NCBI GenBank assembly: GCA_002633005.1
Contig: NMRA01000391.1
Coordinates: forward strand, 298,159-362,158
Length of the DNA: 64,000 nt
Reading direction: 5' to 3'
Source: Phoronis australis
Lineage: Eukaryota; Animalia; Phoronida
A program made the position numbers and the translations under genes. The notes beneath the pieces were generated by a model. That model had not been told where the DNA came from and ran no database searches. It worked only from the letters and a program-made list of their open reading frames with translations. Positions within the stretch are counted from its first letter, which is position 1; every line of letters begins with the position of its first letter. Below, in pieces: positions 1,330 to 28,162 of the stretch.

Positions 1330-2189
1330 TGACAGAAATCTTTTCAAAGGTCTTTTAAACACATGCTTTGCTAATTTTTTAACTTTTTGAATAGAATGAA
1401 CTAAACAAGTCGAAAAGCGTACTAGATAAATATTCTAGGTCCAGAGCGGAAGTACATTGAAAAGTGCCTCAACAAACAACAAATTTAAAAGCGTAAGGTA
1501 TGGTTTTACAGCTTTTTTTGTTACAAATTCAAATGAAATATCAAAAGTGACCTGTGACTAAAAGTTAAGAAGTTGTGTTTTTACAACTGAAAACAATTAA
1601 GCTAAACTAATAAAGCTTTGTGATCAATCAATTGACAGTGTACACAGATCATACAATGGGGCTCATTTATCTTATGCTGATAAACCCACTGAAATCTTTT
1701 GTGCACTACATGGCACTTCGCTTTTTGGAAAACGCGGCACTTTCGAACTTTACTTCACCAGGCACTGCTGCGACTTGTCTCCATTAAAATGAGTAATTGT
1801 GAATAGCAACTCCGCTACAACTGGGCTGATAGCAGAGATTGTTAAGTCCACTCCATTAATATTGTGTCTGAAGTCACCCATTGAAGTGTGTATTATCTGC
1901 GATTGGTAAACATATTTTGGGTGTTTTGATCAAGTTAGTTCGTTCTTAAAATTTCACACACGGACAGTACTAGGAACCGTTAATTAGTTTCTAAGTTCAG
2001 GATGTTCCTCCACAAACTTGTTTTATTTCAGTTTTGGGTTGACAATTTTTGATCTTTGAACTTTCGGGCAATGGTGATTTAAAACCTAGAGTAATCAGTG
2101 GTAGTTACCAGTTTGGAGTATCTTATTCTGTCAATCAGAAATGGTTGCTAGATAACATTCTAAACTTGACTGTGTTGTTTTGTTCACAG

Positions 2190-2291
2190 GTTGTACAAGT
2201 ACCCGAATGGTCAACCTTATTTCTCAACATATTTTGATGCTGTCTGGGACCTGTATGTTCTTGTTACCACAGCCAATGATCCGGATGTAAT
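2190..2291 (+). CDS. TPCN3: TPC3 exon: domain I pore helix and filter (LYKYPNGQPYFSTYFDAVWDLYVLVTTANDPDV)
   Basis: Acceptor tgttcacag|G, donor AT|gtatgt; TTANxPDVM motif. Confidence 0.92.
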
Positions 2292-5200
2292 GTATGTTGA
2301 TTATAAAACCTTTCCATCCTAATCATTGTACAATCCTGAACAAGTACAAGCGTTAACTTGTCTTTTTTCATGACTGGAAATTACTGATCCAAAACAGAAT
2401 TTGCCATTTGCTTAGTGTGCATGTCTCAAGATAAAAATTACGACATTAATTATGTATGCACATGATTATCTCTCGTTTCAGGTAATTCAGTTATGAAATG
2501 TTGGCAATCTTGATTTACACAGCACATTCATATAATCTGGATTATGCTTTGCTAAATACTCGCTTTACAAGATAATCTCCTGAGAACCAACAAACACTAA
2601 TGATGAAGAACTGTTTCAGGATGCCAGCGTATAACAAGAACAACTGGTATGCGCTCTACTTCATGTCTTACTTGGTCATTACTCTGTATATCTTCATGAG
2701 TATCTTACTGGCCGTCATTTACAACAATTACAGGAAACACCTCAAGGTAATCTGTCAGTGTCATGTCTCTGAACAATAACTTAACTCTCAGACATTACTA
2801 ACTTCACCTATTACCGTTGACTCGATGACTGTTTGAAGCGTGTAACATTTCACTTAAAGGTGCATTTTCTCAGTGCTTAACTGCCAAAAACAAAAAAAAT
2901 GAATGAACCCATTTAAGCTCGTAAAATAAGTCTCATGATATTTTATAGAGTAATGGAATTTCTATTAGCAATATGAACATTGAAGCTGTCAGTGACTCAA
3001 CAAAATATCTCAGAGTTTATTCTGGTTCGCCAACCCTAAAATTGCAAATTTCAAAATGGTGCATGTATGCATTGCTTGTGACTTGAGTTATGGGCTTATG
3101 TGGCAACAATTCAGGATCAGGTGAGCTGGGTAAACCCCAAAGCGCGTTGTTTTGGAATTTGTCTTTAATAGCCTAACAGCAGTAAAAGGCTTTTTAGATT
3201 ATTTAGCTAAATGCTTTTCTCTGCGTGTGTGTGTTTTTAGAATGAGGTAAAGGCAGCAGTATACATGAAGCGCAGAAAACTTGCCGAAGCGTTTGAATGT
3301 CTGAAGTGTGTTCAGGATGGCAAGGACGTGATCACGGAGGAGCGCTGGTTTGAATTGATGAAGTTTGTACTGCCAGGAAGAAGACAAGAAGAGATGGAGA
3401 TATTACTCTGCGTCATTGATGAAAGTGGGGACGGATATATTGGTAGTTATTATTATTGAAATCGTCGCATATGGTTAAACTCTACAGAACAGGAAGTTAG
3501 TCACTAAGGGAGGGGCAGCATTGTTTTTGCGCATTCAGGTGCCATCACAAATTTGATAATTATGGACTTTGACAGCTTCATGAAATTGTACACATGCAAG
3601 GCTGTCATTCAAAAACTGTTCACTTTAACAATTGGCTGTTATTATCTAGTGAAGTTAGGAGTCTTTTGAATTATTTAGGTTTTGCCTTTGTACTGATTGG
3701 TGTTCAGTGACTATTTAACTAATCCAGAACTTGTTGATTTTTCAGTGAAGAAAGACTTCCTGAACGTGGCTGACCTACTAAACGTTGAACTCTCCGAGGT
3801 CCATGAGCGTCGGACACTGATTGAACACTACCTTCCTAACCTGTACTTCTCAGCTGGCAGTGAAATAGTCAAGATGGTAGTCAAACACAAGTGAGTGTAG
3901 CAGACATGCTACTGAGGAAGTGACAATACAACAGTGGTTGTAATATTCTGACATAATGTATCCAGAATATCTTGTGTCAAATAATTTACTGGTCAATAAA
4001 AGGTTTAACATTTATATATGGTAGGTGAATGATACAAGAAGCTAATAACCATGACTAAATAAGGCTTGAGATATTACCAGTAAACAAGAATATTCTCAGA
4101 AAACCTATTAGACTGAGTAACAGGATATTCAAGGATTATAGTACATCATTATTTGTCAAATTTCATGTGCCATCGTCAAAGTTATGGCAAAAGTTGTAAA
4201 AGCCAGAAATCGTGAGAAAGTTAATCATGAGTCTTTGAAAGTTGTTAAATCTTGATCTGAAATTGTGTCGATATTTCAAGTGGAACACACTAATTTTGTA
4301 AACTTTTAGGAAAACCATTGTAGACTTTTTATTACTGACTGTCTATTATTTAAAACATTTAAATTTCTCTTATACACATTATAGTTTTTCCACACTTGAC
4401 TTATGTGGCCTCGTCTTATTTTCTCAAAGTTATTGCAAAAATACTTAAATCTTTAAGTTGTGTTGTGCCAGAATTCTCATCTAAAACAAACATTTTCGAA
4501 ATTCTTGATATTTTGTTTGCCAGCAGTGTGTTTACAGAACAACTGTCATGAAACAAACTGTATCTTGGTACGAACTTTTTTATTAATTGTAGGGAGGTAG
4601 ACATAAAAAAGTGACACTGTTGGTAATTGTTTTGTGCAACAAAAACCAGATTTTTATGGTATTTACCAATTTAACACTATGGTATAGACACATCTCACCA
4701 ATTTAGGACAACTAATTTAAGTTTATTTTCTCATTTTTTCAAGATACTTTGCATCAAATCCATGTTCGGTCATGTCACCAACTTTTGAAAAAATGGTCAT
4801 TCACAACAACATTCAAAGACATTGAAAAACGAGAAAAGAGCAACATTGCCATTTGTTTTTGTCCAAAATAGGTGAGATTTTACCATAAATATTCCAGATT
4901 AGAGCGCGCAGTTTTCAAAATATAAATTTCAATCTGGCCTGCTGCTAAGCATTCCCAGCAGCCTTTTGTCCTGCAGCCACATCTGTTGACACACAAACCA
5001 GTTATCTACCACACTTCAGAGTTACTATGAAGTCATTGCTTATGCAACAATTGCTCAGCTTTACTATAGAGTAATTACTGTACAAGTCATTGTTAAGGCG
5101 ATAATTGTTCTACTTCACATCTCAAAGGGAACTTGGATTAGTTTAATATGTGATATTGTAGGTCTTACTAGCTGTTCTTGTACTGGTCTTATCTCCATTA

Positions 5201-8200
5201 AAGTACAAGGTACCACAGAACGGGCTGGGTTTCGAATAAAATCCAATGCAACTTTTTTAGTTATTTTTCTCTCAACACGTCACCAGCTCATCCACTGGCA
5301 TTGTTTTTACTTATTAGGTTCTTCCGTTACTTCTTTGACCTGATGATCGTTGTCAATGCTTTCTTCATCGGATTCGATGTTCAGGAGGCTGAGTGGTTCT
5401 TTCTGGTCCTCTTCTCTTTAGAGATCATCCTCAAGATGTACACGTTTGGTCTGTGGAGGTTCTTCTCGGCACTATGGAATGTGTGAGTACTGACTTGTTA
5501 CCCATGTATTCTTATACAGCCTGACTAAACCACACTAGCTATACATTGGCTATTCAGAAACCACAAGGGGTAATAAAATAAATCTTCTCACCCAGGACCA
5601 CAAACTTTTTGTTAATCTGTGTTTTCTTAGACAGGTCAACTGAGACAGTTGTATGACTTTGGAGCAGGGTTCTCAAAATCTGCTTTCACTGACCTTGCTT
5701 GTCAATTTCAAAAGGCCTTTTGTATTTGAACGACGTCCATAATTTACAACCATCAGTAAAATAAAATTCTGAGCCATTACCCCTCCAAGCCCAAAATGAT
5801 GCCTCTTGTATTCAGTGTGTCGTGAACAGCCTAATGATAACATGGGGGTTGTCTGTTATATTTATTGTCTGTCTGAGGTTAAGAGTTGGTGATGTCAACT
5901 GTATCTTCATCATTACGGTAGATTAAAGCTGCGTTTTCTGTTCAGCTGGTTTAAAACCAAAAATCGAAGGCCTTTTCCTCACATATAATCAGTCTCCTAA
6001 TATGCGTTACCGTGATAGGATTCTATTTCTGTTTCCAACACAGTCACAGGCAATGCATACATGCGCCATTTTGGAATTTGCAATTATATGGTTACCACAA
6101 TAAAGTCTGAAGCATTTTTTCTTGAGCCACTGATGATTTTGTTGTTAACAGATTGAATACATTCACAGTAATATCAATTTTATGGGAGTGAAAGGCCCAA
6201 TTCGATTTTCAGGTTTTAACCCTGCAGTTACACAGGGTGAAATCATAGGTTATAGATAACAGAGTCGCAACTCCAACATTTTCTTTTGTACTATCCCAGA
6301 GGAGGCGCTACTCTCCTAAATTACCAATTTCATTTTCTGGTTTGTGTGTTGTGACGGGAAATTCTCGCTGTCCAGTACAATGAAAATAAAAATAATTTCG
6401 GCATTGAAACGCTGTTCAAAGTCTTCCAATAATTGAACTGTTGGTATCGTGAGTACTTTTGGCACCCAACCACACAACAGGCAACCCTGATTAGCATACG
6501 ACATACTTCTGGAAGTAAAACTTGCTAATTTTACCAGGCGTTGCCAGTGAAAAATGACATCATGGCTTATGCGTAAGATCACAGATTTCGTCCATTGACA
6601 ATATACGGAGTTGGCGGTCCATGTACTGTTGTCTATGGTGAAAAAGAGCTTTAACTGTTATTCTTAGCTAATTTGATTATGTAAAGTTTTGATGGCTATT
6701 TTGGTTAGTCATTAAATGTGTTAGTTCCAAAATGGATCCTGTAGTGTCGTATGTCCTCCATTATCGTGGGTCCCTTGAGATTATCTTGTTCACCTTTGAA
6801 AGCATGACATCAATGACACTACAGACTGGGCCATAAAAAGTTGATAGTTTCAGTGAACACAGAATAGGTGATATAAATCTCAAAGCAATGGATGTGCAAC
6901 AATAGTTTTGTGATTTATTATTTCTGAATCTCCAAGCCCTCATATTGAAACAACTGCAACTTACTGACTAATTCTCATTTAATTCACAGTGCAGTTTTTG
7001 TTGGTTCCTATAGGTTTGACTTTTTGGTCATTGGCGCAGCTCTCGTCGCTTCCATTGTTGAAGCCTGTATTGGAGAATGTAAGTAGATGATGTGACAACC
7101 AGCAATTATTTTGCAAATCCTGCTACTTTTCATTAGTTTTAAACTTCAAAATTAATTTTGATTCAACATCTATATTAAATTGTTTGAAAAAGATACTAAA
7201 AGAGCTAAATTTAACTCTGCTGTTTAAAATGAAGTTTAATAGACAAATAGTACATTAATTTAGTACCAGTTTGTTAACATCCATGACAACTGCAAAAGAT
7301 CATTATGACACGTCATGCCAGTCCTTTTTGTTCATATGAAAGCCATGTCCTGCTGCCAGATTGTGGGCCCTTTATATGATCTGAGGTACGTACAACAAAG
7401 CGAGTGCCTTGCTTGTGTTACATAAGTCCTAGCTGGTGTTTTGCAAGTAAAAAGTACATAGCAAACAGTAGCATCAATAACATGACTTTGACCAAATTTG
7501 CTTCAACGTAAATCTTCAAGATGAAATCTCAAAAATGCTACAGTTTTTAAGTCATTCTGTTATCGTTTTATGCAAATTGAATTTTTTCTTAAAAACCATG
7601 AAAGTTACATTTTTAATAAACCCTCTTGCAAAAGTGGATCGATTTAAAAACAATTGCTAACAATGCTTTTGAGAACAGTGCATTAAGCACAGCATTTGAA
7701 AGTGTCATGTGAATCCCATCAGCCATTTCTGAGATCTGATGTTTAAAACTTAACCAAATTTTGGCATTTTTCTGGGGACCTACATAACATTAAAGCCCCA
7801 TCAAAAATCATCGATGAAGACCAATGTCATGGTTCTTGTTTTGCAGTGGATACCTTTATTGTTGTTTTTTTTTGTTCTGTTTTTTTTTCAATACCTCGAG
7901 TTAGCATTCTTGATTTCTCATCACTCCATACACTGCATTGAATGTATAGATTGTTTCAACCAGAGGATTGACCGCCACTTAGTGCTTTTTGTAGTTTCAT
8001 GCTATGAACATTCCCACTAAATAAGATTGGTTCTAACCCCAGTGGTTAAGGTAAACGGCGGGGTACAGAAAATTGAACTAGACCGTATTTATCCACCTTG
8101 GCTGAGTCGCGCTCGGCTCACGATCAAAGGGATGCCGCCGAGCTGCTCTAGTCATCGAATCACGAACGAGGATAATTGGCTTCGCTCATGCGGATATGAT

Positions 8201-11200
8201 CAGCTGATTAAAATCTAGCTAGCAGACTGTACTTTTTATGGAGAGAGTTTTATGTAGTTTTTACTGTAATATTTGAAAAGAGGAGCGAAAACAAATATGA
8301 GTACAACTTTGAATTTTTCAAATCGGCCCAGGATAAGAGATTTTGCAACACAGCAACACTCATGATTACTTTCATTCGGCGCGCACTAATACAAAAATAT
8401 AGGANNNNNNNNNNNNNNNNNNNNNNNNNNNNNNNNNNNNNNNNNNNNNNNNNNNNNNNNNNNNNNNNNNNNNNNNNNNNNNNNNNNNNNNNNNNNNNNN
8501 NNNNNNNNNNNNNNNNNNNNNNNNNNNNNNNNNNNNNNNNNNNNNNNNNNNNNNNNNNNNNNNNNNNNNNNNNNNNNNNNNNNNNNNNNNNNNNNNNNNN
8601 NNNNNNNNNNNNNNNNNNNNNNNNNNNNNNNNNNNNNNNNNNNNNNNNNNNNNNNNNNNNNNNNNNNNNNNNNNNNNNNNNNNNNNNNNNNNNNNNNNNN
8701 NNNNNNNNNNNNNNNNNNNNNNNNNNNNNNNNNNNNNNNNNNNNNNNNNNNNNNNNNNNNNNNNNNNNNNNNNNNNNNNNNNNNNNNNNNNNNNNNNNNN
8801 NNNNNNNNNNNNNNNNNNNNNNNNNNNNNNNNNNNNNNNNNNNNNNNNNNNNNNNNNNNNNNNNNNNNNNNNNNNNNNNNNNNNNNNNNNNNNNNNNNNN
8901 NNNNNNNNNNNNNNNNNNNNNNNNNNNNNNNNNNNNNNNNNNNNNNNNNNNNNNNNNNNNNNNNNNNNNNNNNNNNNNNNNNNNNNNNNNNNNNNNNNNN
9001 NNNNNNNNNNNNNNNNNNNNNNNNNNNNNNNNNNNNNNNNNNNNNNNNNNTGCCGTAGGCTCACTACAATAAGCGTCCCCTCCCCGTGAAATGAATTTTT
9101 CTAAGCGTTTGTTTGAGCCAATACAGTATACAGCTTTCCACCAAGGCTAGGTGATGCAAGACATTATTCTTTGTTGCATTATAGTAACTGGTCTTGGCTA
9201 ATTATCATTTTATGGCCTGGTCATCCATTCAGCCAAAAGTAGTTCCAGAGGTGGCTTATCAGCCAATTATTCACGCATGCTGACTCACAATAGAAGCCTG
9301 ATAAGAGTGAAGGTGGATAAATGCGGTGTTCCTACAGTTTCGTGTTTTAGTGGATGTGTTCACGACATGTGAAATTTGTGACCAGCTTGATCTAATTCAC
9401 GCAGCATGTGGGACTTAAATAAAAAATGTCACTTCTTGTGTCAAGTGTTTATCAAAATTGCCTTTTCTGATCAGATTGACGATGTACCTAACAGTTGGTC
9501 TGTGTGCTGTGAATCCCTAGCAGTATTTGTTATTAAACGAGATAGTCAGATGAAATTATTTTTTACGCACACAAAAAGGCTAATTATTTAAAAACCCACA
9601 ATCGTCACGTGATTTTGGTTGAATAAATGAAATTCAATTACGTTGCCACCGATTTGTATCTTGCTAGTGACTTCGTAACATTTACTGAATGCACCCTGAT
9701 CTGAGTGTCTTTTCAAGGTGCTGGCGTCTGTTTCATGATATGCGACTTAAAAGACTGAAGTCACAAATTTGTTCTTACGCTCCACACAACTATTCCTGAA
9801 AAGTAATTGAGTCTCACTTAAGGAAAAATGCAAAGTGTCTAAGAAAATACACAAATAAATGCTAGTCGCTTACTTTATTCATTCCAGGCCTGGCTTTTCA
9901 GAATCCATAGGGGTTAATAACACAATTATTATCTTATCAGCCGGGGACCATAAACCCTTTGTTAAGCTGTGTTTACTTGCATGGGCCAACTGGGACAGTT
10001 GTATGACTAAGAGCAGGGATCAGAAAGAACTGCTTGCACTGACCTTGCATTTCAATATCCAAAGGCCTATCATGTGAATGACTCCTGTGATTTACAACAA
10101 AGTCCCTCCTCCCCCACAAAATTCTAAGCTACTACCCCTTGCAAGCCCAAAATGTTCCTACCGTTATTTCTAGATTGTGATGCGACTCATAATTACTTGG
10201 CTCAACCTTTTTGCAGCAAGTGTGATGTGGGAGCATAAAATGTTTTGTTTTGAGTCTTAAGTCACTTTCATGAAAGAGACCCCTGCTGGCCTTTATTCTG
10301 ATTGTTGGCACATTACAGTTTCTGAAGAAGACCTCACCATGGACATTTTACTGGTGTTGAGAGCACTAAGATTAATCAAATTTGTCGCTAATATAGACAG
10401 GTATCTATCTTTATTAACAATAAGGTGGTACATGTACCATACAGACTGGAAAACATGGCGTCCCACTCTGAGTAACATGATGGACGTTCCCTCATTCGAA
10501 TGCAAAGGAAAGGCTAGAAACTTTTTGGTGTTTACTAGTCTAAGATTACAAGTCACCAGTTGTTAGTCCCCTGGCTTTTACCGTGTTGTGCATTCACCTC
10601 CGTTATGTGGCAGCTGGCATACTATCGGTTTCAAGCATTGTGTTGCGTTCATGTTCACAGAGTAAATACAATGACCGACTCAAGACTGAACACAGCCTGT
10701 GTTTAATAGCGAGATGGTCATTTGATGTTTGTTCTGTGAAATAGAATGCTGTTGAAATGACAGTCACGCTAACTAGATCATTTCTGTGATGTTGCAATGC
10801 ATTACACAGGTATAGTTAACCAGGGTGAGGGAAATTATGTTTAAGATAACTCAGTGATTTGTAATTTAGTCAAAACAACACCAAATGCTGGCTTCTCTCT
10901 TTAGTGCTGCTATTGTCTCACGTGCCGTCAAAAAACTAACTTTTTACGTTAGACTAGTGCTGTTACCACTACTAAACTGATCTCTACCTGTTTGTGTAAC
11001 TCTGAAGAGAAGTATTCTCTGAGCTTAGAAAAACTGTTCTTACCAAGCCTTGAAATGCACTTTTCATTTGAATAAGGAATGGTTTACAACCAATTACATA
11101 TCGGTATGTAAAAAGTTAGTTTTTGTCGCGGAAAGTGGGTGTCATAGCCTTAAAGACTATTTCTGGCCCCCAAAACTCTCAGTCTCCACCAGTCTGTATT

Positions 11201-14200
11201 ACTGGGGTATACAAGTCTGACTGTCTGCTTGATGTATCATCACACTGAGTTGTTGTTTTGATTTTTATTGTGAAGAACCCTCAGCTTACAAAATACTGTA
11301 AGGTGCCAGGGGGCCATAGTATTTAATATTCAACACGATGATTATTCATCAAGTGTCCTTAGTGATATTGTTGCAGATGGCTCTTAGAACACTGCGACCA
11401 GAAGCAATTTGGTTGATATTTTGGCAATGGCTGTCAGACTTGTAAACAGTTGGCCTTCGTTTGCTTATTACACCCTCAAGTCAAAGTTTTCATTTTCAGC
11501 TGAAGATATCAGTCCAACTCTGGACTTTCTCTTGGTTCTCCGTGTTCTCCGAGTGGTCAAAATCATTAGTGGCCTCAACAGGTAGAACCAACCTGGTGGT
11601 CCTCTGCATGTGACACTGGTTGCATGTCTCTTGACTCAATCCTTCCACTTTGCATGTCTGTGGCAAGTTTTACCAAAGCAAATACAGTCGTAAAACAAAA
11701 TCTTAAGTGCTTCATTTAAAAAAAAGATGTATGTATAAGCTGAATAAGTATTAAATACTGATTGAAAATTTGATCTGAAGCTTATCGTTAGTTTCATTTA
11801 TTTCTAACAAGATATCATAAATACCTCCGGAAATTTCTGACAACTGTTGAAAGCTTTTGCCTTCCTTAGTGGTTAATAGGTGGCACTGAACAAGCAGTCA
11901 AGCCGCATTACAACGAATGCTGTGAGGACCTTTCCAAAACGAAGTTTACTGTATGTCATTTGTATTCAGTACAATTTGTTTGGGACTTGAAGCATGGAAC
12001 ATCATAAAATGTAGATGCTTAGATAAAAGTGACCGAAGGCAATAAGTATAGTCAACAAAAAATTTGAAGGTGTTTTTTCTGGATTGAAAAAAGGAACTCG
12101 CAATTATTCCATTTCATCTTTCAAACAAATCTGTTTCAGTTAAATTAAAAAGTCTTTTATCATTTGTTCAGTTTCATGACTTCTATGTATTGTGCAACAA
12201 AATGTAGACTAAAAAGTCGTCAGAATATACAGCATGATGGAGGCATGATCTGCTATACTCCTTGTGCGTAAAGCCTAACTACAATTTTGGCGTATTTTAC
12301 GGCTGGTGTTGTTGGTAAAATGAACTGCGGTTTGTAGTTGGTGTCGGTGTCCACGCCACTTAAACATCAAAGCGTTCTGTTCTTTGATTTTAATATTGAC
12401 TGATAACCCCATCGCACTCTGTGGATCTTCATCAGTCAACGTTTGCTAGCATACACTCTTCTGCAAATATTGGTCGTTTTATTGAAACATTAACAACTCT
12501 TGTTGCATTATGATGTGACATTCATCATTGGAATAATTGTGTAATTGCTGAGTTAAACGTCATGATTACATAGTTACCCGTGCTTTATTTTATAAACCCA
12601 CCTGTCATTTTGATTTCCGACTTACCATTGAAAAATTGGTATCAGAAGTTGTTCCTTTCACAGACTGAATTCTGAGCATGGGAAAAACTGACAGATTGCT
12701 CGAAACCAGGCTTAATAATTTTTTTTAAGCATTGTTGTGTTCCCTCATTCATTCAATACAAGATTCGTCATTTTACTGTACGATGTTATGATTTAAAATT
12801 ATATAAGTGGAGGTTGAGAAATATTTTTGCCACTAAGTCGTACATTCGTCTTCTCTAATGGAATTTTAAGGAACTGAAACTGCTTTTCAATACCCAAATA
12901 CCATACTGGCATATGCATTGAAGATCAAATTTCTTTCCTCCACTGTGACGATTCACCACTAACTTCAGTGCACATCATATTCAAACGATTAATCGGCAAA
13001 TTTACTAAAGCCTCTGGCCATTTCTTTAAGCCCGTTTCCAAGCAACACACTTTTTAACCAAAAAAGCTAGAACAATTGAACATTTTAAGGGCATCTTGCT
13101 TTCACTGCACTAAAACTAAGAGTGAAGTTTGGCCAAGTCACCTAAGTGAAAGTCTGTGCGTTATTATCAAAGGCACGCGTTATGATACTTTTTTGATATT
13201 TAAGTTCTGTTTATTGTAGCCTAAGTATAGGTCATGCACCGTGAGACTGTCACCATAGTGGCATAGAAAACTAGTTCTTAGTTCAAATTGTGCAAACTCA
13301 ATGATTTAAGACGTATTTTGAATACATTGAATGGGAGATGCTATGGAGGCGATTGCCAAGATATCAGAGCCTATCCACATAACCTCAGAGTTTGACGGAA
13401 TAGCTTATGTATTTCAGTTTATTCAAAAATATTACCCGTCAAAAGCTTAATGAACTATATGTGGTAATGTACATGATAATGTCACTCAGAAATAGACAAA
13501 CTTTGTATCAAATGAGCATAGTCATTCCTGTGCACCAAATGCAATTGGCTGACTAAATAAGGCACTAATTAGTGCATTAACTATTCTGCTAGTCAGGTAA
13601 GTAATACCATGGAACTAGTAAAGGTGGCTCTTGTAGTTAGTGATCTCAAGTTGTTTTTGATAGATGGTGGGTAATTATTTTAAATATAGTCTTACTGTGT
13701 GGACATGCTTTGTGTGAACTTTTAATGCTTCTGATTTCATTAACAGTCTCACTTTCAGATTGTGTAGTGTAACTTATTAACCAGTGGCGACTAGTTCAGC
13801 AGGGCTGATGACTCTTGCCGTAAAGATTCTAACAGAAACCCAGGCAGGCATTAATTGACTTCAGACGTGCTCTAGACCCAGTCTCTACCTGAGTTTATGG
13901 ACTAGATCAAACTATATGACAAATAGCAAGCATCTGCTCAAATGTCACAACTATAAGAAGTGGAGGCCCAGCCAATGTAGGGAAGATGGGCTGTTTTAAT
14001 TTGAGCATACCTTCCCTGGTTCTTAATTAAGAGTCCAGCTTGTGTTGAGTGCAAACCTGGCTTCTGTTAGAAGCTTTACATTATGAAGAGTCTCTTATTG
14101 TGAAGTAGGGGCTAAGTTCAATTGTCTGCCTGCTAGCAAACTGAGTTGTATTTTTATTGGCTAAAAGACAGTATGAAGCCAATTTGTTCTATGGGTTCTA

Positions 14201-17200
14201 ACATTAGATAAAGTTTGGGCTCATGAGGGATTGAAGTTTGGGGCTTTTGATGTCACATTCTGCTTTGTTAAAACTCTGGAGTAAAAATGGTCCTGTTCGT
14301 GTAAAATGTTGGTAAAAAGTGTATCTTGAGAATTTTTGTAATGGACCAGTATTAGTATGTCCTACTTTTAATGATGAAGTAGTCTCCACCATTCTATGTT
14401 GTATTTTCAGAAGCTTTCAAATTTCAATGTTGCGTTTTTCGTTTATTACATTGTGATAAGCGTTTTAAATTTTGTGTTAGGTTTTATTCGCTTTAGTATC
14501 CACTTGTTTTTTTTCTGTAGTTTAAGTGTTTTTACTCTTTCACATTCTTTTGTATTAGTTCTTTTTTAATTTCTGATGTTGTGTTTGAATTTATCAGGCT
14601 TGATTTTTGTTGATCTTTGCTTTATTTTTTATCAGGTTCAAAGTGATAATTCAGACAATTGTCAACATTGGACCTTCAATTCTCACTTATGGCGGTGTGC
14701 TGTTTGTAAGCTGATTTTGCTTCCTTCTTTTTTCTCATTCAAACTGCTTTCATCTTGCAAGCAAGTTGTGCTTTAAAGTTCTTCAATTTTGGACTAGCAT
14801 TTGATTCGAAACAGTGTGGCACTGTGATTTTGACAGTGCAGTTTGCTACAAAGTAAAGATTGCAAAACCGTTATACCATATCCACTCTGAAATTTTGTCA
14901 TTGTTAGATATGTTGTTTTTTGTACTTTATTGTTTCGCGCAGCCTGTATTGCGAGATTCTGAAATCTGTGACGACACCCGACTAAGGAAAATAAACAAAA
15001 TTCACCTTGTCTGAAATTGAAGATAGTACTGTACCATTTGATTTTCTCTTGCCTATTAAATGCTTAATATTTGTTACTTTTAAATCGCAGTTGTGTGAAA
15101 AAATATTAAATTCGGTTTTGTGTAGTTTTCTTCAGGGCACGCAGTGTGTGCATTTTCACTGAGCCAGAGCTCATTCAAAGAGTGCTATGCCGTTTTTCTA
15201 GTATGACAGCATTATTTCTTAGAATACCATAATGCAAAGCTCAACATTTCCTAGGTGACGCTATAGTGAAACAAGGTGGCGCTAGTGCACTTCCTTCATT
15301 AGCACTGCCAAACAATTCCAACCTGAATAACTGCTATTAATAGTAATTGTCAATCTGTGGCTATCTCTAGGTACTGTACTATACATTCGCCATCATTGGT
15401 ATGGAAGCGTTTCAAGGTCTCATCCGATATTACAATGAAACAGAAGTGACTGCAGATCCCAAGAAGATGTACTGCGGTAATAAGGCACTGATGAACTCGA
15501 CGTTCTATAAGGATGGGTACTGCGCCAACAATTTCAATGACATCTTCAAGTCCATTGTTATTCTGTTTGAGCTCATGGTGGTTAACCAATGGCATGATAT
15601 CCTTTATGATGCAATAAACAAAATGTTTCCTTATATGGAGATTCAGCCTGTTATAGCGAGAAATTCTTTGTTGCTTTTCCTTTTTTAAACATTTTGCCTA
15701 GTAAACAGAAATGACAATTAGTTTATTAATTGTGGATTATAGTATAAAATATTGCGCAGCTTCACAACACCTTGCATACTTTCCTTGGCATGATATTTTC
15801 CTCTTTGAGTTACTTTCTCATCTGTGCGCGAGTGTGATAGCACAATTCTTTATGAAAGCATTGAACGAGACTGGCATTAGTTCCGTTATGATCTGATGTG
15901 ACACGTGTGTGCTAATTCACTAAATATTGAATGCTGTTCGGGTAACATTACCTTGGGATATACTGTTATTACCTTGGGATATACTGTCTCACACAGTGGC
16001 AAATGTCCAGTGTTGTAACAGTCACAAAAATAAGTCACTGTGAAACGAGGCAAGTCAACATTAACTTCTTGTTTTCTGTCATTACAATATGGTCAAAATA
16101 GGACTCATGAGTAGTTTTGGGCTCAATTAACTGCTGTAGTTTTATTTTATCTTATTTCAAATTTATCCAGTTTTAACTTGCCAGGGTATTGAGTGCTCAT
16201 TTTACTCTTAAGTTTATGTTCTGCTTTAAGACACCAGTAACGTGTTGCTTCTGCACTGCAGAAATAGAATGTCCAACAGCTCAAGGATGCATGTTGCAAG
16301 TACTTATGTCAAACAACACATTAGGAGACAGTAGAGGTGGTCATGTTTTAACTGTTACATATTCTGAGACCGTACGCGGCGTTTCCTCATTTGTCCTTAA
16401 CTCTTGTCACTGTTGGCCGAAGGCTTCGTTCTTGTCACACATTCTGCAGCCAAGATTTACTTCTTTGCTTTCCACATTGGATGTGTTATCATTATTCTAA
16501 AGTAAGTGCTTGTCAGTTTTAAAAGTGTTGTTAAAGATTCAGTAGCTTTTAATGCATTATTTCAGATGTGAACTTTATTCAGGTTAAAACTGCTATAAAC
16601 TTGCCTTCTGTCAAAAAATCACTGCTAATCTAAGTTGAAGGAAAAAATTTAGACCAACTTAGACCAACTTCATAAGGGTAAGTGGTTGGTAAGTGATATA
16701 AATTGACAAAAATATTTTGTTTTTTTTCCTAAGGCACGGCAGCTTTATATTGCTCTTAGTAATTTCCATTAGTTACGTGTACAGTAACTTGTTTTCCTTA
16801 TCTTGCAAAAACCGGAAATGTCAGTAGGCGCTACATCACATTTCCCAACAAGCAACTGTGAATGCTTCTTACAGGGTGACCTTCCACAAGGCTTTGAGTT
16901 TTATGACCAGCTTCTTCTGTTTGCGTATTAGGGAACAGAGATGGGGTGTCAGTGATAACCACTGCCTGTTCTTTACAACTTTTTTCTGCCCATTTTAAGT
17001 CATTAGTATGGAGTACAGAAGTAAAACTGGTCATTGAAAATTGAACTATTTCATTGTTTGATTGGTGTACCAATACCTTTTGTCATGTCACGTGTGGTGT
17101 TTCTTTTTTTGATTTTCATTGAATTTGGCCGCTGTTATAATGAAATGCTACTTTATTGCATGCTCATAAATTTAAAAAATATTCAGGGTATGGTGATGAT

Positions 17201-20200
17201 TTTCTACTTTGTTTGTACTAATCCGACCACCCAAGTAACGACGATGGTGGAGACTGAGCTAACTACTCTTAGCAGAACTTTGCTTGGCTGTCTGGAATTA
17301 CTTTGACTACCGGTCGCTGATTCATTGCCAACTTGAGGGACAAAAAGTTGTGACCTGTGCTGTATTGCTGGTATAATGTTAATGCTTTTTGCATTTACTT
17401 TCAGTATTTTCACTGCATTTATTTTGGAGGCCTTCATCCTTGAGTACTCCTTATCCAAGAATAAACTGGAGACAGTCGTTGAAGCAAAGATCAGGGAGCT
17501 GGGATATGGCCTTGGACAGTGAGTTCTTTGTGAAGTAGCTAGTGATTGGCTTTGGGAGAGGACAGCCGGGTTGTCCCATCCACAGTGGGTAGGGATCCAG
17601 CTCCACTTGGTCAAAAGAGAACCCACATCAGGCTAACAGGTTTCTATTAAGGAGACGGTGATGCCTTCCCATTTTTGGACAGATTTAACATTTTCTGCAC
17701 CACCTAGTGGCCATTTTTATTATTTTCAAGTCTGTTTTTGGTGTCGGCCTCCCTATCTGCTGAACTGCGCAAAAGATCGTGAAAACTAGCAAATGTGTTC
17801 CTGCCAATATTACTATGGCTGACATTGATTTTCATATGAGTCTTACTACTGTTGCACCCCCTAGTGACATTTTTTGCATTCGTGGCCACATCTCCTAATC
17901 ACTTGCAAGATTTTTGTTTTGCTATGAATGTGCCAGATGACAATGATTTTCGGACAGATCCAACTACTGCAATTTTATATTTTATAAGTTTACCTCTGCA
18001 ATTTCAAAGTTCCAGAGTGCGATGGACGATGATATTATGCATTTTTGGATGGATGTGAAGTATTTTGCTCAACCTAGCAGCCATTTTTATTATTTGAGTG
18101 TTTTAACATCAGCTTCTTTATCCGACTAACTGCTCAAAGGGTCATAAGGATGGCAGATGTTTTCCTCCTGAGGACAGCGCTACTGATGGTGATTTTTGTA
18201 CGGGTCTTACTACTGTGGGGCCCCCTTGTGGCAATTTGTTCTGGATCCACAGCTGTATCAGCTAAACCCCTTACTGGATCTTTAATGTTTAAAATGTGAC
18301 TAGTGTAATCCTAATAAACATGGCAACGTGATTCTATAGCCCGACAACAAGTTGGGAAGATGACCCTTGTAGCCAACATCATATACGACTGATTAACTCT
18401 ATTCTGGCATTTAGGGTTGGAGTACCAGCTCTCTTTTGTTCGATAATTGCTCTAATCTCCAATAAGATCATTTCTAGCCTGACTGGGCTGTGCTGTTAAA
18501 AATAAAAGTTAAGTTATAACATATTTGAACATAAACCGATAGCATTTCTGATTTCCTCGTCAAATGCTGATCATGTTTAGTTTTTGAATCGCCAAAATCG
18601 CCCAACTACAACGACCGAAGTTACGACAAACTTTTCTTTCCAAACCTACGAATTTGCTTTAGGTTTGACTTCGTTCACATGTGGTCTGTAATAAGCCTGG
18701 TGTATAATTGGCCTGCTTGTTATCATATGGGACAAAAGAGTGTGCTGGGCAGTTAACAAAGGAGCTAAATGTTATCACACGCTCACAACCCCCTACGTCT
18801 GGTAAAGTCATTGAATGAGAGCACGCCGTAATGCATACAATTTGTGGTGCAGTCTTGGGTGCATTTCAGTGTCTTGTGTTGTTGCTGTATTATGATTTAT
18901 GACATTCACTTAGGCACGTACAACACTGTTAATTTCGGTCTTTTAGTGTCAATTAAGTTTGATCTCTCATTGAATACTAGCATGGTGTTATACTGCACTA
19001 TTAGCTGGTTCTCAACTGATCTCACCAAACTCTCAAAATATTCAATTAATGTAGTTTGAATTTTCAATACTTATGAAATTGCGTATGTTGTGTGGGACCA
19101 GAGGCGAGGTAGATGGTTTTACCCATGTTTGAGGCAACTGGAGTGAAATTTTGGAGCAAAATAATATTAGAAACGTTTCATGCAAGTCCATTGTTCATCC
19201 AGTGCATACGTACTTTTAACGTGTTATCTGTTATAAGTGGTTCAGCTTTCTGTATTTAATTGTTTTACAGGAGACCAACCAAAAGACGTGGTCAGTCAGA
19301 CGAGCCAGGGCTGGTAGACAATATAGAGCTGCAGGAGTCTAGTTTAGAGCGAAGTGACTCCAATGAGAGTCTACCTGACCTGCAGCAGGAGCAGGGACTG
19401 AGGTTTCATTTGCAACGACAACGTAAGAACTGTTAACTCATTTTAGCCGACTCCTATTGTGATATTTGGTGACAGCACATATGTGATGAATGACATGAGT
19501 CATTTGCGTGAGATCGTGTTCAAATTATAACTTGTTGATAACCCTGAAAAGGAAATGTCTAGTGGTATAAAGCTGGTATGGCTATCCACTGAACAGTCAA
19601 GCTACAACAATCACTTTTCTGCTGACAGAAACTTATCAAAGCAAGAGTTGCTGTGATAGTGGGACAGCTATTGTGGGTGTGGAGGGGAAGGCAATCATTT
19701 TTAGTATAATTTTTGGTTAATTTACGATTTTCTGGATATCCTAGATATTCCCTATATTCCCTTGGGTTCTAATTAATTATGCATGCGTCGATCCCTTTGG
19801 AAGTTACGTTCACGTCTCGTATCATTCCTTGCTAGCTTTGTTTGTTGGATGATTTATTGTGGACATCTGCAACATATGACACTGCACTTATCAAAAAAGC
19901 ACTGCTAACAAGTGAGGATGGAGAAGAGAAGCAAAATGCCAATAGTGTGGCATCCTTCTTCAGACCATATTTAACAGTTACCTTTAGGATATCTGCAATC
20001 ATGTTCTTTTCATAATCTGATGGCAAGAAATTTTTGCCACAGTAGTTTTTTAATTGCATGGCAGCGTGAATGGGCCTTGCTGCATTGTCCACATGAAAAA
20101 GCCAACTATGACGGATTTTGTCATCCACTTGAAATCGGTGAAACGGAACTCGGTCCTATACTCGTTAAGAGCACGTGATGTTTTGCATCCCGGTATGCAA

Positions 20201-20788
20201 CAACGACTTCCAAGCATGTGGAAAAATACTCAAATGAAAGCAAATAACAGTCTAACTTGTCACAGGCTGACATACACAATGACACATCCAATGTCAAACA
20301 CAGTCTGAAGGACATGTAAACAAAGCTGTTTTGGGAATGATTTGGGCCACAAACTTCACTACTGGAGGGATTCTTACATAGTTAATTGGAATCTGGGAAT
20401 TTAATTATCTTGAAAATGTATCGAGATAACTAGCAAATCATAATTTAATCAAAAATGTCACTTAAAATTGCTGCCTTCCCCTTTAAATGCAAGTTGTATA
20501 AGCCCTCGATGTATTTTCAAGAGTTTTGTTTTTTGATATTCAGTACTTCTTAGAATTTTTAGTGTCAGCAATCAAAAGTAAAAGTATGTGAGAGATGTTA
20601 CTTGGTAATGGATAGAATATGCTTATTTATTCATTACTTGTCCTTCAGGAAGCAAGAAAGTTGATATTTTGCTCCAGCAAATGTTTGAAGGTGAAATTGA
20701 TCCCGAAGACCTGGGGCCTGAAGTATTTGATCCTGATGACATGGATGAACCTATACCAAGAAAGTTGACATTGGATCAAGTCACATAG
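2190..20788 (+). CDS. TPCN3: Two-pore channel, TPC3 clade (5'-partial, spliced; domain I pore to C-terminus). Exons 2190-2291, 2620-2746, 3241-3442, 3746-3890, 5318-5482, 7014-7078, [10319-10400 OR 11500-11581], 14636-14705, 15371-15596, 16411-16501, 17405-17518, 19271-19422, 20649-20788
   Basis: Manual splicing gives one open frame with consistent phases: ...WDLYVLVTTANDPDVM|MPAY...LAVIYNNYRKHLK|NEV...EF-hand linker...S1-S4...ELMVVNQWH|VLAEGF...IL|NIFTAFILEAF...LDQVT*. The VVNQWH filter and YNNYRKHLKNE are TPC3-like. Confidence 0.9.
2620..2746 (+). CDS. TPCN3: TPC3 exon: domain I S6 (MPAYNKNNWYALYFMSYLVITLYIFMSILLAVIYNNYRKHLK)
   Basis: Acceptor tttcag|G, donor AAG|gtaatc; in phase with neighbouring exons. 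Confidence 0.93.
3241..3442 (+). CDS. TPCN3: TPC3 exon: interdomain EF-hand linker (NEVKAAVYMKRRKLAEAF...IDESGDGYI)
   Basis: Acceptor tttttag|AAT, donor G|gtagtt; overlaps ORF 3265-3459. Confidence 0.9.
3746..3890 (+). CDS. TPCN3: TPC3 exon: end of linker (VKKDFLNVADLLNV...VKMVVKHK)
   Basis: Acceptor ttttcag|TG, donor AA|gtgagt. Confidence 0.9.
5318..5482 (+). CDS. TPCN3: TPC3 exon: domain II S1-S2 (FFRYFFDLMIVVNAFFIG...LEIILKMYTFG...ALWNV)
   Basis: Acceptor ttattag|G, donor GT|gtgagt; EIILK and WN motifs of voltage-sensor domains. Confidence 0.93.
5545..5815 (+). repeat. Dispersed repeat, second copy at ~9888-10172
   Basis: Collinear shared blocks ggacca.aaac, gacagttgtatgact, cactgaccttgc, aaggcc, caagcccaaaatg. 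Confidence 0.85.
5923..6220. mobile_element. Non-autonomous DNA-element family; related pieces at ~2854-3085, ~38580-38796 and ~62365-62480
   Basis: Shared motifs in either orientation: catgcgccatttt, ttaccgtgataggattctatttc, gggagt.a.aggcc.aattcgattt; TTAAAG ends. Confidence 0.6.
7014..7078 (+). CDS. TPCN3: TPC3 exon: domain II S3 (FDFLVIGAALVASIVEACIGE)
   Basis: Acceptor cctatag|G, donor T|gtaagt; completes WNVFDF. Confidence 0.9.
8405..9050. other. Assembly gap (N run) in the TPC3 S3-S4 intron
   Basis: 646 consecutive n bases. Confidence 1.
10319..10400 (+). CDS. TPCN3: TPC3 alternative S4 exon A (FSEEDLTMDILLVLRALRLIKFVANIDR)
   Basis: 82 nt, acceptor ttacag|TT, donor AG|gtatct, phase 1 to 2; RxxRxxK S4 pattern. 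Confidence 0.85.
11500..11581 (+). CDS. TPCN3: TPC3 alternative S4 exon B (SEDISPTLDFLLVLRVLRVVKIISGLNR)
   Basis: 82 nt, acceptor cattttcag|CT, donor AG|gtagaa, phase 1 to 2; homologous to exon A; not in the ORF track. Confidence 0.85.
11605..11656 (+). promoter_or_regulatory. Three TGCATG (RBFOX) motifs just downstream of S4 exon B
   Basis: TGCATG at 11605-11610, 11621-11626 and 11651-11656. Confidence 0.65.
14636..14705 (+). CDS. TPCN3: TPC3 exon: S4-S5 linker and start of S5 (FKVIIQTIVNIGPSILTYGGVLF)
   Basis: Acceptor ttttatcag|G, donor TTT|gtaagc. Confidence 0.9.
15371..15596 (+). CDS. TPCN3: TPC3 exon: domain II S5, luminal loop, pore helix and filter (VLYYTFAIIGMEAF...NNFNDIFKSIVILFELMVVNQWH)
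   Basis: Acceptor tctctag|GTA; ends at U12 donor G|atatccttt. Confidence 0.92.
15597..16410 (+). other. U12-type (minor spliceosome) AT-AC intron, 814 nt
   Basis: 5' site ATATCCTTT at 15597; branch point TCCTTAAC at 16394-16401; terminal AC at 16409-16410; removal restores the frame NQWH|VLAEGF. Confidence 0.92.
16411..16501 (+). CDS. TPCN3: TPC3 exon: post-filter helix and domain II S6 (VLAEGFVLVTHSAAKIYFFAFHIGCVIIIL)
   Basis: Follows the AC acceptor; donor AA|gtaagt. Confidence 0.9.
17405..17518 (+). CDS. TPCN3: TPC3 exon: end of S6 and C-tail (NIFTAFILEAFILEYSLSKNKLETVVEAKIRELGYGLG)
   Basis: Acceptor ctttcag|T, donor CA|gtgagt. Confidence 0.9.
17703..18250. repeat. Diverged direct duplication (~17703-17885 and ~18073-18240)
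   Basis: cctag..gccatttttattattt ... gtcttactactgt ... cccc occurs in both copies. Confidence 0.8.
19271..19422 (+). CDS. TPCN3: TPC3 exon: C-tail (RPTKRRGQSDEPGLVDNIEL...GLRFHLQRQ)
   Basis: Acceptor ttttacag|G, donor C|gtaaga; open frame whose phases match both neighbours. Confidence 0.8.
20649..20788 (+). CDS. TPCN3: TPC3 last coding exon (SKKVDILLQQMFEGEIDPEDLGPEVFDPDDMDEPIPRKLTLDQVT*)
   Basis: Acceptor ccttcag|GA; TAG at 20786-20788. Confidence 0.82.
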
Positions 20789-20923
20789 AATGAACCTACA
20801 CCAAGAAAGTTGACGTTGGATCAAGTCACATAGAATGAACCTATACCAAGAAAGTTGACATTGGATCAATCACATAGAATGAACCTATACCAAGAAAGTT
20901 GACATTGGATCAAGTGACATGGA
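20745..20923 (+). repeat. Four-copy 45-bp tandem repeat spanning the TPC3 stop codon
   Basis: Unit atgaacctataccaagaaagttgacattggatcaagtcacataga starting at 20745, 20790, 20835 (1-nt deletion) and 20879. Confidence 0.97.
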
Positions 20924-23391
20924 ATATTTCTATCTGTTGAGTTCTGTAGGAATTTGACTTATCACATCATCAACAATTTAGCTGCGCCTTCTTGAGCATT
21001 GGCGGTAACCCCTGACTACCTAGAATGACTGACAGTAACTTGTCGGCGATACAAGTTTAAAGCTCCAGTGCCCCAACCTTTGTCATTTTTTGTCAAAAAG
21101 GGCTTGTGTATTAGATCACATAGCTGTTCATAAAATTGATCTTGGCTTTAACTTATTCAATTCACCTGCCAAGAATTGCATGATAACACTTGACTTTTAT
21201 CTTACTCAATTCATCTGTCAAGAATTGTACGATGAAACTTGGCTTACCTCAAAATCCAACTGCTGCCTGCCGGTTTGGTAATTGGCCTAATTATGTTGCA
21301 CAAACAACAGAATTAATGAGAAGCAGAATACTGGCACCATTGTTCGATAGTTTTGGTTTCTAAATTCAAAAACTTAATAAACACGTCGTGTACTTTACAC
21401 GAATATGCTATTTAAAAATTTTCAATACGTAAATTTAAAAAGTACTTCGTTGCCCACAATGTTTATGTTGGGTCTGATTACCTAGAGAACAATAACATCA
21501 TCAGTCTTTGGTGTCCCGGCAGAAACTATGGAATTCACTATGTTGCATAGTGTCTTTGATCATTGCAGCAGATTTCAAGATGTGCAAACTGGTTGAGTTC
21601 ACGAGTCTTGATCACTGAGGGAGTCAACGTAGGATTCTTTTCATCAGATTAAAAGTGATTTTGGACTTGTGTGACTGAAATGAGTAATTTGGAATTGCTG
21701 CGATTTCATTTTATGTCGTAAGAGCAGTGTGGCTACCAGTCAATAAGTGATAGGCCGGTTCCATGACCAAACACTAGATGGCATCATCAGTTGGTGCGTG
21801 GGCTTGAACTGGGTTAAGTTCTCTAGATGTAGAAAGCTTAGGAAGGAAGCTTGTGTGATCATGTGCTTCGCTTGTATCACATGTCTGGCATGTCATGTGA
21901 CGTCTTGCACATGTGAAGTCTTGCGCGATGTTACATCTTTGTAAGATTCTCACATCTATAGAAGGCACGCCTGTCCTGCATGCAAATAAATCTGACAGTA
22001 ATTAGAGATTCTGTTGTCTGGAGCACTGCTCTGGTGTGACTTTGATGGGTGACAAAGCTAAACTAGGAAATCATGATTGTAATATTTTTACCGTAATGAA
22101 ATTCTAAAATTTGAAAATGGACCTTTGTATGCATACTCTGCCCTGACTTGTGTTGGTAACGGAAAAGGAATCTTGTCATGGTAAAAATATGAAGCACATT
22201 TCAGGAGAGCAAATGGCTTAATTTAACTTTTTTGTTTAAGAAGTCAAACAGTTGTAAACATCACCAGTTTCTGTCCAGAGTATTCACTATTCCACAATTC
22301 ATTTCATTCACTGCTTTATTGTTGTGATGTAGAGACTAATGTGTTAATTGGTTTGCATCACACAAAATGAACTTAGATCAGTGCTCATGATATCAGGATT
22401 GATGGCACTAGCGGTTCTTGTACAAATCTATTCAAGAAGTACAAAGTGCCCTGAAGTGGTCGCGAGTACTTGATATAAGCTTTCCTCCCTGCGTCTACTT
22501 TTTATGTTGTGCTACATTTGACCATTTGGTTTTGAATTGATGCATCTTTGTGATCTCTTTTACGGCACTTATAGGACTTAATTTTTTATATAGTTAAGAT
22601 TTATCTTCATTGTTGCCATTTTGCACACTCGTTCTTTCTGTTGCATATGTCATCATGTGAAATATTAATACTTGGTGGGGTTATTTGCTATTTTGCCAGT
22701 AAATATTTCAAGGAAGATTGTGACTTCTGTCTTGGTTAGCTTGACAGTTTTGTGCCAATTCCTTTGTTGCCCTTGTTGAATGTAGTGTAGTGTAGTCTTC
22801 CTGTTATTAATGACCAGAAGCATAATGTGTGGGTATCATATTAATTAGCAGATATCGTGACTATATAGCAAAGTCATGAAGCAGCACTGTACTTTTGTAT
22901 TATGATATCTGATATACTCACTCTTGGTAATGGGGATGAAGTACTTATGTATAGAATTTTTTATTTTGGAAATGGATTTCGAGGTAAAATGTGATTTTTT
23001 TTGATAGCATAATCTGTGACCATTTAGCATAATTTTTTGAACAAAGTATGTTTATGTTTAATACTTACCTCATATTAGAGTTTTGGATTATTTAGCGACA
23101 TGTTATTTGTATGGAGTGTAATAAGTAAAAATGGATTCTCTCTGCTGTCTGAGTGCTTGAGCGAGACCATGGGCGCTTTTGGAGGCTCAAAATACAGTGT
23201 ACCTTCAAACACAATACAAGTTTAAGATGCAAAAATTACCTCCACCTTCACCTGCAATCATGGATTGCTGGAAATGTAAAATCCATGATTGAAATACTTA
23301 TACCTGTGCCAACGTAATTCTGCCACTGTTGTGAGCCCAGGATGACAGGAGCAGATCTGCATATGTGTATGCGTGTTCCACGCTCTTTTTT

Positions 23392-27517: not shown

Positions 27518-28162
27518 TACGCAATTGCCAATAGGAGGGAAGCTTATCTCAAGCAGTTGTTTAGCTTGTTTGGTTCTACGGATTATTCAAAATAGGGGTG
27601 GTAACCAGTCTTAGGTGCGATTGTCACTTCGATGGATATTAGAAATATCATTCAATTTTAAACTTAATTCTCAAAATATATGTAAAAAATTGATGTAGCG
27701 TGATTTATTTGTTATGTTTTATTCAATGGTTTCTGTTTTGATCACCAGGTAGAAACACTGCACCCCTAAAATACGTAGTCGGCCCTAACCATTTAATGCT
27801 GGCATTAAGAATATCAGTGCTGTAGCGAAGTCTGTACGTAAAGTCAATTTCTTTCACTCAAACGTTGGTTTTTCTATGTTTTGAGTGACTTTTTGGATTA
27901 ACTGACGTTCAAGACCCTGTGAAGACTTCTACGGATAGGAGTAATCGTTTTCACCACTGCCTTTGTGTGGGTTTCGTGTTATTCACTGTAAAGTGCCCTC
28001 GGAGACAAAGTCCGAGTGTCCAGTCTCACTGGCACCAGCCGTTCTATATATTGCAAGTTTATACAAATTACGGCCAAGTCAAGCCGCATTACAGCAATAC
28101 AAGTATGCGCTAACTCGTATTCAGCGGTGTAGAGTAGTGGCCCATGAGAGTGAACACGCTGT

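Follow-up and report, generated by a model that had tools for sequence, protein, structure and literature searches.

An alternatively spliced pair of S4 voltage-sensor exons in the two-pore channel gene TPC3 of Phoronis australis, probably giving differently tuned channels under likely Rbfox control

Two S4 exons in one channel gene

Can one two-pore channel (TPC) gene supply two channels that differ in their main voltage sensor? The question is raised by a TPC3 gene on the forward strand of a 64,000-nt stretch of the Phoronis australis genome (contig NMRA01000391.1, positions 298,159 to 362,158; hereafter the window, in which all positions are counted from its first letter). Two homologous exons of this gene, the divergent exon A (10319..10400) and the consensus-like exon B (11500..11581), each encode the S3-S4 loop, the S4 helix of domain II and the entry to the S4-S5 linker. 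Both lie between the constitutive domain II S3 exon (7014..7078), which provides a shared upstream donor, and the constitutive exon for the S4-S5 linker and the start of S5 (14636..14705), which provides a shared downstream acceptor. A first-pass annotation made from the sequence alone had proposed that the two exons are mutually exclusive and that the gene makes two isoforms. In line with that proposal, each single-exon path was found spliced, with reading frame and charges kept. A and B are almost certainly a real, expressed and selected pair of alternative S4 exons.

Both exons are 82 nt long with AG/GT ends, in phase 1 at the 5' end and phase 2 at the 3' end, and our analysis reproduced the coordinates, lengths, phases and peptides first reported for them. 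They are identical at 39 of 82 nucleotides (48%) and 11 of 28 residues, so that 17 of 28 residues differ. Transcripts with A alone or B alone encode 559 amino acids from the first exon in the window, whereas inclusion of both gives 296 and skipping of both 271. The premature stops described previously were recovered in the spliced frames: the co-inclusion junction reads AG/C TGA and the double-skip junction T/GT TCA AAG TGA (slashes mark the joints). When a profile of 148 natural TPC3 S4 segments was run against all six frames of the window, the only two positive scores (47.0 and 30.0 bits) fell on this exon pair, and the next score was -19.4. A gap of 646 Ns upstream of A (8405-9050) could not be scanned, and a further exon copy could sit there; read depth at its edges is high on both strands and repeat-like. 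The introns flanking A and B resembled one another no more than shuffled sequences did, with flanks of either 300 or 1000 nt, which agrees with the earlier view that they are unrelated. Searches of the PDB with the 26-residue A and B peptides were uninformative.

Selection on both copies

The similarity between A and B is concentrated at second codon positions (8, 19 and 9 of 26 identical at the first, second and third positions, respectively), and eight of the ten shared residues are written with different codons. In simulations of neutral decay to the observed 39/82 identity, the D, R, R and K/R positions were kept without a stop codon in 27 of 20000 runs starting from B and in 16 of 20000 starting from A. 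With decay to 57/82, which is half the divergence, the charges alone survived in 211 and 151 of 5000 runs, and the charges together with 11 hydrophobic positions and the exon end in 0 and 2 of 5000. The codon-position pattern and the simulations thus agree with the selection on both copies that had been suggested from the first inspection. These comparisons indicate that A and B are under purifying selection, and that the duplication is old with both copies maintained.

Splicing of the two exons

Splicing was investigated in three raw stranded RNA-seq runs from one study (X2, X3 and X4; 151-nt reads; about 18-19% of each run read). The threshold for listing a joint was at least three reads with two starts per run, and up to two reads per run could go unseen. 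All four junctions that had been put forward for such a check were found. The S3 exon was joined to A (7078>10319, across a stretch that includes the N gap) by 3, 2 and 2 reads in X2, X3 and X4 (7 in total) and to B (7078>11500) by 8, 3 and 7 reads (18). A was joined to the linker exon (10400>14636) by 7, 3 and 0 reads (10), and B (11581>14636) by 13, 4 and 3 reads (20). All listed joints of the region 6960-14790 are on the sense strand; the four junctions occurred in X2 and X3, and three of them in X4. Neither the A>B joint nor the joint skipping both exons is among the full set of five joints listed for this region in X2 to X4 with at least three reads.

Exon A accounted for 7 of 25 upstream junction reads (95% confidence interval 0.12-0.49) and 10 of 30 downstream ones (0.17-0.53), so that about 30% of junction reads use A and about 70% use B. 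The 25 and 30 reads of A and B combined compare with 30 and 39 for the neighboring constitutive joints, the latter counted at a slightly lower likeness setting. Across 2100-19500, all 11 introns of the B path were found among the joints listed (15 of 36). A set of contigs representing a small share of reads (X1) was excluded from the A/B count; exon A is absent from it and exon B is represented by just its last 19-22 nt, so that it gives no independent support for A. The first-pass statement that exactly one exon must be used holds for the full-length protein. Strict exclusion at the level of splicing is bounded weakly, because joints with fewer than three reads per run are unlisted and nonsense-mediated decay (NMD) would hide the other products.

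Probable control of exon choice

Three copies of TGCATG, the Rbfox element, lie within 100 nt after the donor of exon B (11605..11656, forward strand; +24, +40 and +70 past the donor). No second cluster of this kind occurs on either strand of the window, in which single sites number 28 and 20 on the two strands. The Poisson expectation for a triplet is 1.4e-5 per 100 nt, and none of 20000 dinucleotide shuffles produced one. No TGCATG follows the A donor, and one in total follows the other 11 donors; within the first 100 nt of all 13 donors, no hexamer occurs three times except after B. Rbfox binding downstream of an exon usually promotes its inclusion. UGCAUG acts as the Rbfox element across animals (PMC3585155), and inclusion of exon 5b of SCN9A falls on Rbfox2 knockdown (PMC12772994). 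It is therefore fairly likely that Rbfox proteins steer the choice between A and B, and in neurons or muscle they would considerably more likely promote B than A.

Other mechanisms that could enforce a choice were also considered. Steric exclusion is unlikely, as the A-B intron measures 1099 nt. A mismatch between U2 and U12 splice sites is unsupported, since TCCTTAAC occurs just once in the gene, at 16394, and belongs to a different intron. Exon B may have a distant branch point. Pairing of docking and selector RNA of the Dscam type found no support: the best duplexes reached -29 to -30 kcal/mol against shuffled means of -30 to -31.5 (200-nt flanks, 15 shuffles each, with 8405-10118 left out as target). 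Of 87 inverted repeats, the 25 longest had no arm in common, and the RNA-structure element of SCN9A had no match at the TPC3 exon pair. With these mechanisms found unlikely or unsupported, regulated choice combined with NMD of frame-shifted products would be the simplest account. Stray transcripts with both or neither exon are likely to be removed by NMD.

Some unusual features of splicing were observed in the same part of the gene. The first five bases of the exon A donor at 10401-10410 (GTATCTATC) are U12-like, and no U12 branch site precedes the linker exon. A U12-type AT-AC intron lies in the domain II pore (15597-16410; donor ATATCCTTT, branch site TCCTTAAC at 16394); its donor and branch site match the U12 consensus given in PMC6259924, and it is spliced AT..AC in 10, 12 and 21 reads in the three runs. 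Over about 9600-16600, a stretch that starts just 5' of exon A and closes with the U12 intron, sense reads cover the introns at a depth of about 2-9; upstream introns free of repeats show about 0-2, and the intron after the U12 intron 0.6. This could mark a delayed-splicing block linked to the A/B choice and to the U12 intron, or a repeat near 9100-9600 could give rise to an internal transcript.

Residue differences and expected gating

The residues of A and B carry Xenopus TPC3 numbers, with D511 and F514 setting the register; 517, 520 and 523 are inferred from spacing. Both exons carry D511, L514, R517, R520 and K523. They were compared with natural S4 segments drawn from 242 of 263 proteins of at least 300 amino acids; the segments were picked by pattern and are gapless, and the loop columns are therefore approximate. 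Exon B falls within the ordinary range of TPC3 segments (51.3 bits, with 50 of 141 natural segments lower), and its only rarity in the core is V521 (2 of 148). Exon A is an outlier (34.3 bits, with 2 of 141 lower). Its rarities M510 (0 of 148), A518 (1 of 148) and F524 (0 of 148) all adjoin conserved S4 positions. Most of the differences between A and B are in the loop and the linker entry, which are highly variable across TPC3 proteins. A carries a net charge of -1 and B one of +1; the outer loop has -3 in A and -2 in B, and five of 141 natural loops reach -3.

The domain II S4 is the main voltage sensor, as the first-pass annotation also held for TPC1 and TPC3, and its conformation sets gating by voltage or by phosphatidylinositol bisphosphate (PIP2) (PMC9963007). 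In Xenopus TPC3, a single change at 514 reveals a PIP2-dependent opening mode (PMC9963007), and D511C shifts the half-activation voltage from 64 to 112 mV, an effect reversed when the charge is restored (PMC8665364). The PIP2 site is in domain I (PMC8665364, PMC9963007), which the A and B isoforms have in common. The helix is thus sensitive to change, yet the residues altered in these studies do not differ between A and B. Because the gating charges are shared, the difference expected between the isoforms is one of tuning. With moderate confidence, we predict from the sequences that they differ measurably in voltage dependence or kinetics. By analogy, we lean weakly toward A opening at a less depolarized voltage than B, because A adds negative charge in the outer loop and the charge of the neighboring D511 favors opening in Xenopus TPC3.

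Proposed model and alternative explanations

We propose that the domain II voltage-sensor exon was duplicated in tandem long ago, so that the gene gives two mRNAs, carrying A or B, whose products are likely two functional channels that differ in the tuning of their gating, as predicted above. The choice between them would likely be set by Rbfox binding at the putative sites after exon B. Taken as a whole, this model of two differently tuned TPC3 channels under likely Rbfox control is probably correct. TPCs are dimers, and co-expression of the isoforms would therefore give A/A, A/B and B/B channels.

Several points weigh against the model. The share of A was alike in the three runs (chi-square P = 0.78 upstream and 0.40 downstream), and because of this no regulation of the A:B ratio is demonstrated. 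Read counts were low and came from the single study sampled at 18-19% of each run, and an A>B joint could exist unlisted at two reads or fewer per run. A Rbfox effect could also run in either direction: SCN9A 5b fits the rule of promotion from downstream, but exons 7a/7b of C. elegans unc-32 do not, as UGCAUG 3' of the second exon there favors use of the first (PMC3585155). In SCN genes, NMD is not the main cause of exclusivity (PMC12772994). The known key positions (D511, the L equivalent to F514 and the three basic residues) are the same in A and B, and for this reason the effect of the swap may be small. Finally, no alternative S4 exon within a species was found in 30 TPC3 clusters, in which the closest protein reaches 59-61% identity; one copy of such a pair is often missing from annotations. 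Those clusters listed 205 members, of which 203 were tested (two short fragments were left out) and 175 cover S3-S5; three large clusters were covered in part (15 of 211, 15 of 34 and 15 of 24).

Some of these points would also be expected if A and B were functionally equivalent, each kept by purifying selection through its share of transcripts and without any adaptive difference. The shared charges at key positions, the location of most differences in the variable loop and linker entry, the constant A:B ratio in the three runs, and the failure to find the pair beyond the lineage in the 30 clusters all fit this explanation. Against it stand the three clustered Rbfox motifs beside just one of the copies, which suggest selected regulation, and the 17 of 28 differing residues with a net charge difference of 2. 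We consider equivalence unlikely.

A further alternative is that A is a damped or non-conducting variant that turns TPC3 down or poisons dimers, comparable in effect to the truncation by Nav exon 18N. The low profile score of A, which lies under 139 of 141 natural segments while B reaches 51.3 bits, and the three residues next to conserved S4 positions would suit such a role. Against it, A keeps the frame, D511 and the three basic residues under selection, and an off-switch needs a mere stop or frameshift, which skipping already supplies. This explanation is improbable as well.

A more far-reaching version of the differently tuned channels is that the exon swap flips the gating mode of TPC3, with one sensor making the channel strongly voltage-gated, as usual, the other resting in the PIP2-gated intermediate state that is characteristic of TPC2, and Rbfox setting the mode by cell type. 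We regard a mode switch as quite unlikely. If it were true, one gene would supply both excitable and lipid-gated organellar Na+ channels, and the 17 residues that differ between A and B would serve as a natural map of the determinants of the mode.

That two alleles or two paralogous genes were merged into one locus during assembly is hardly credible: the N gap lies 1.3 kb upstream of A and no single 151-nt read or contig spans A to B, but 9051-14636 is free of gaps, A and B are both spliced, within the same runs, to one shared set of flanking exons, reads fall in 29 of 30 bins of 6960-14790 with the N gap as the sole empty bin, 48% nucleotide identity is far past allelic divergence, and no other TPC3 exon is duplicated, all of which fits the original suggestion that the pair is not an assembly duplicate.

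Comparison with known systems

Duplicated voltage-sensor exons that are used exclusively are known from other channels, and convergence on such exons in ion channels is a recognized theme (PMC8373072). A close counterpart is the IS4A/IS4B pair of the Drosophila Cav2 gene cacophony (PMC11828482), an exclusive S4-sensor pair in an invertebrate single-copy channel gene that is not found in vertebrates, as here. Swapping the cacophony IS4 exons alters activation voltage and localization (PMC11828482). Cacophony is a four-domain plasma-membrane Ca channel in which one of four sensors is exchanged, whereas TPC3 is a two-domain dimer and its swapped S4 is the main sensor, which also sets gating by PIP2 or by voltage.

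Exons 5A and 5N of Nav channels (SCN1A-3A, 5A, 8A and 9A), the comparison made in the first-pass annotation, are an apt analogy. They too are duplicated, frame-shifting exons (92 nt) for the S3-S4 loop and S4, with involvement of Rbfox (PMC12772994, PMC4309913). The exon peptide of SCN5A ends seven residues past the third S4 basic residue, at the same codon as the TPC3 exons (phase was not compared). The Nav exon 5 copies are about 91% identical with few residue changes, are located in domain I and occur chordate-wide (PMC12772994, PMC4309913); in contrast, the TPC3 copies are 48% identical, differ at 17 of 28 residues and are located in domain II, and no counterpart of theirs is known from elsewhere. 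Exons 18N and 18A, the other Nav pair invoked at first, are a poor parallel, as 18N has a stop and truncates the channel (PMC4309913). Apt comparisons, along with cacophony, are the strongly diverged exclusive voltage-sensor exons of Drosophila para, K/L in IIIS3-4 and C/D in IIS4-5 (PMC4309913). The K and L exons differ at 16 of 41 residues and affect persistent current (PMC4309913). Para belongs to another channel family, its exons to another domain, and its regulator is Pasilla/Nova (PMC4309913).

The literature search, which left subscription journals and most supplements outside its reach, found no case of mutually exclusive S4 exons in TPCs, and to that extent bears out the initial impression that none had been described. 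TPCN1 and TPCN2 are absent from a catalogue of 236 human tandem-exon substitutions, as far as the available main text and supplement show (PMC8373072). Both isoforms may already appear in an annotation of the genome or in a supplement. By analogy, then, the A/B pair can be regarded as the TPC instance of the exclusive S4 exons known from Nav, para and cacophony.

The pair thus extends the convergent duplication of voltage-sensor exons, known in Nav and Cav channels, to two-pore channels, in which the swapped helix is the single main sensor and has the further role of integrating the PIP2 signal. Within an otherwise identical channel, two natural sensors that agree in their gating charges and have 17 other differences form a natural experiment on the voltage dependence and gating mode of TPCs. 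The Rbfox motif cluster suggests independent recruitment of one splicing regulator to S4 exons of different channel families. The finding is confined to one lineage.

Distribution in other animals

The exon pair is probably lineage-restricted, because no alternative S4 exon was found in the 30 clusters. Unlike the window gene, the TPC3 isoforms examined in vertebrates and invertebrates showed no alternative S4 exon. A metagenome scan with the S4 alignment returned five pattern matches, of which one was confirmed, and no loci. Three candidates for a related arrangement were rejected. An echinoderm link, considered since sea urchin S4 segments looked A-like and starfish ones B-like, was dismissed: no echinoderm cluster has more than one S4 form, and the window gene falls among spiralians. 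In Lingula, isoform P0084 differs from P0167/P0168 in S3-S4, but the 13 differences between P0084 and P0168 span residues 397-705 and reflect a multi-exon block or an allele, not an exchange of S4 exons. The equal-length X1 and X2 isoforms of Dreissena differ only within the last 15 residues.

Two Lingula TPC3 paralogues, P0062 and P0084, both on a contig with a length of 749738, are 45% identical and have clearly different S4 segments; judged by their sequences, they represent two sensors obtained through gene duplication, not exon duplication. Isoforms of the second Lingula TPC3 paralogue show small differences across a long block. In Patella, P0074 and P0169 differ from P0170 and P0171 (two species) by a 7-residue insert exactly at the domain II S4/linker junction. 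Elephants (P0266 and others, two species) have a 20-residue insert exactly at this junction, and one Pocillopora model also has an insert there. The Patella and elephant inserts appear from their position to be another type of splicing at the same intron. The location of the inserts in Patella, elephants and Pocillopora suggests that the intron position at the S4/linker junction is widely shared.

Gene model and neighboring features

The 5' part of TPC3 (domain I S1-S5) is upstream of the window, and the model of 559 amino acids extends from the domain I pore to the C terminus. The exons for the domain I pore and S6, the inter-domain linker and domain II S1-S2 (2190-2291, 2620-2746, 3241-3442, 3746-3890 and 5318-5482) are supported by the gene model, RNA joints and a structure match of the linker exon. 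Joints 5482>7014 and 14705>15371 connect the constitutive exons around the A/B pair to the rest of the gene. The exons for the domain II pore, S6 and the C terminus (15371-15596, 16411-16501, 17405-17518, 19271-19422, and 20649 to the stop near 20790) are supported by the gene model, by RNA joints up to 19271 and by a pore structure match. All are on the forward strand.

Comparison with solved structures gave pore exon scores of 74 bits for zebrafish TPC3 (6V1Q), 36 for mouse TPC1 and 30 for human TPC2, and 6V1Q was also the top match of the inter-domain linker exon. The pore filters of the model are TTANDPD and VVNQWH, compared with TTANSPD and VVNQWH in 6V1Q, and the S4 register D-x-x-[FL]-x-x-R-x-x-R-x-x-[RK] is common to the window gene, 6V1Q and Xenopus tropicalis TPC3. 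The closest protein matches (Babylonia, Lingula and Gigantopelta) show 58-59% identity. A quick, unfinished tree search (45 rows, with 44 selected from 146 proteins, and no TPC1 or TPC2 outgroup) placed the window gene among named TPCN3 proteins inside the spiralian set (Shimodaira-Hasegawa-like approximate likelihood ratio test 96-99), nearest to Lingula (61%). In the same tree, it was the sister of two Logan proteins with weak support (86), one of which clusters with Bugula TPCN3. The placement makes a lophophorate the likely host. These comparisons indicate that the gene belongs to the TPC3 subfamily, nearer to TPC3 than to TPC1 or TPC2.

Within the intron between B and the linker exon, a non-canonical 156-nt skip (13117>13274, AA..TA; 0, 0 and 3 reads, X4 only) is probably a deletion allele. 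A 45-nt unit is present in four tandem copies at 20745-20925; it takes in the TPC3 stop codon together with the 14 codons before it. Downstream of TPC3 is a Smad gene, with an MH1 exon at 28154-28675 and an MH2 exon at 51381-51935, about 23 kb apart, which we take to resemble Smad6/7.

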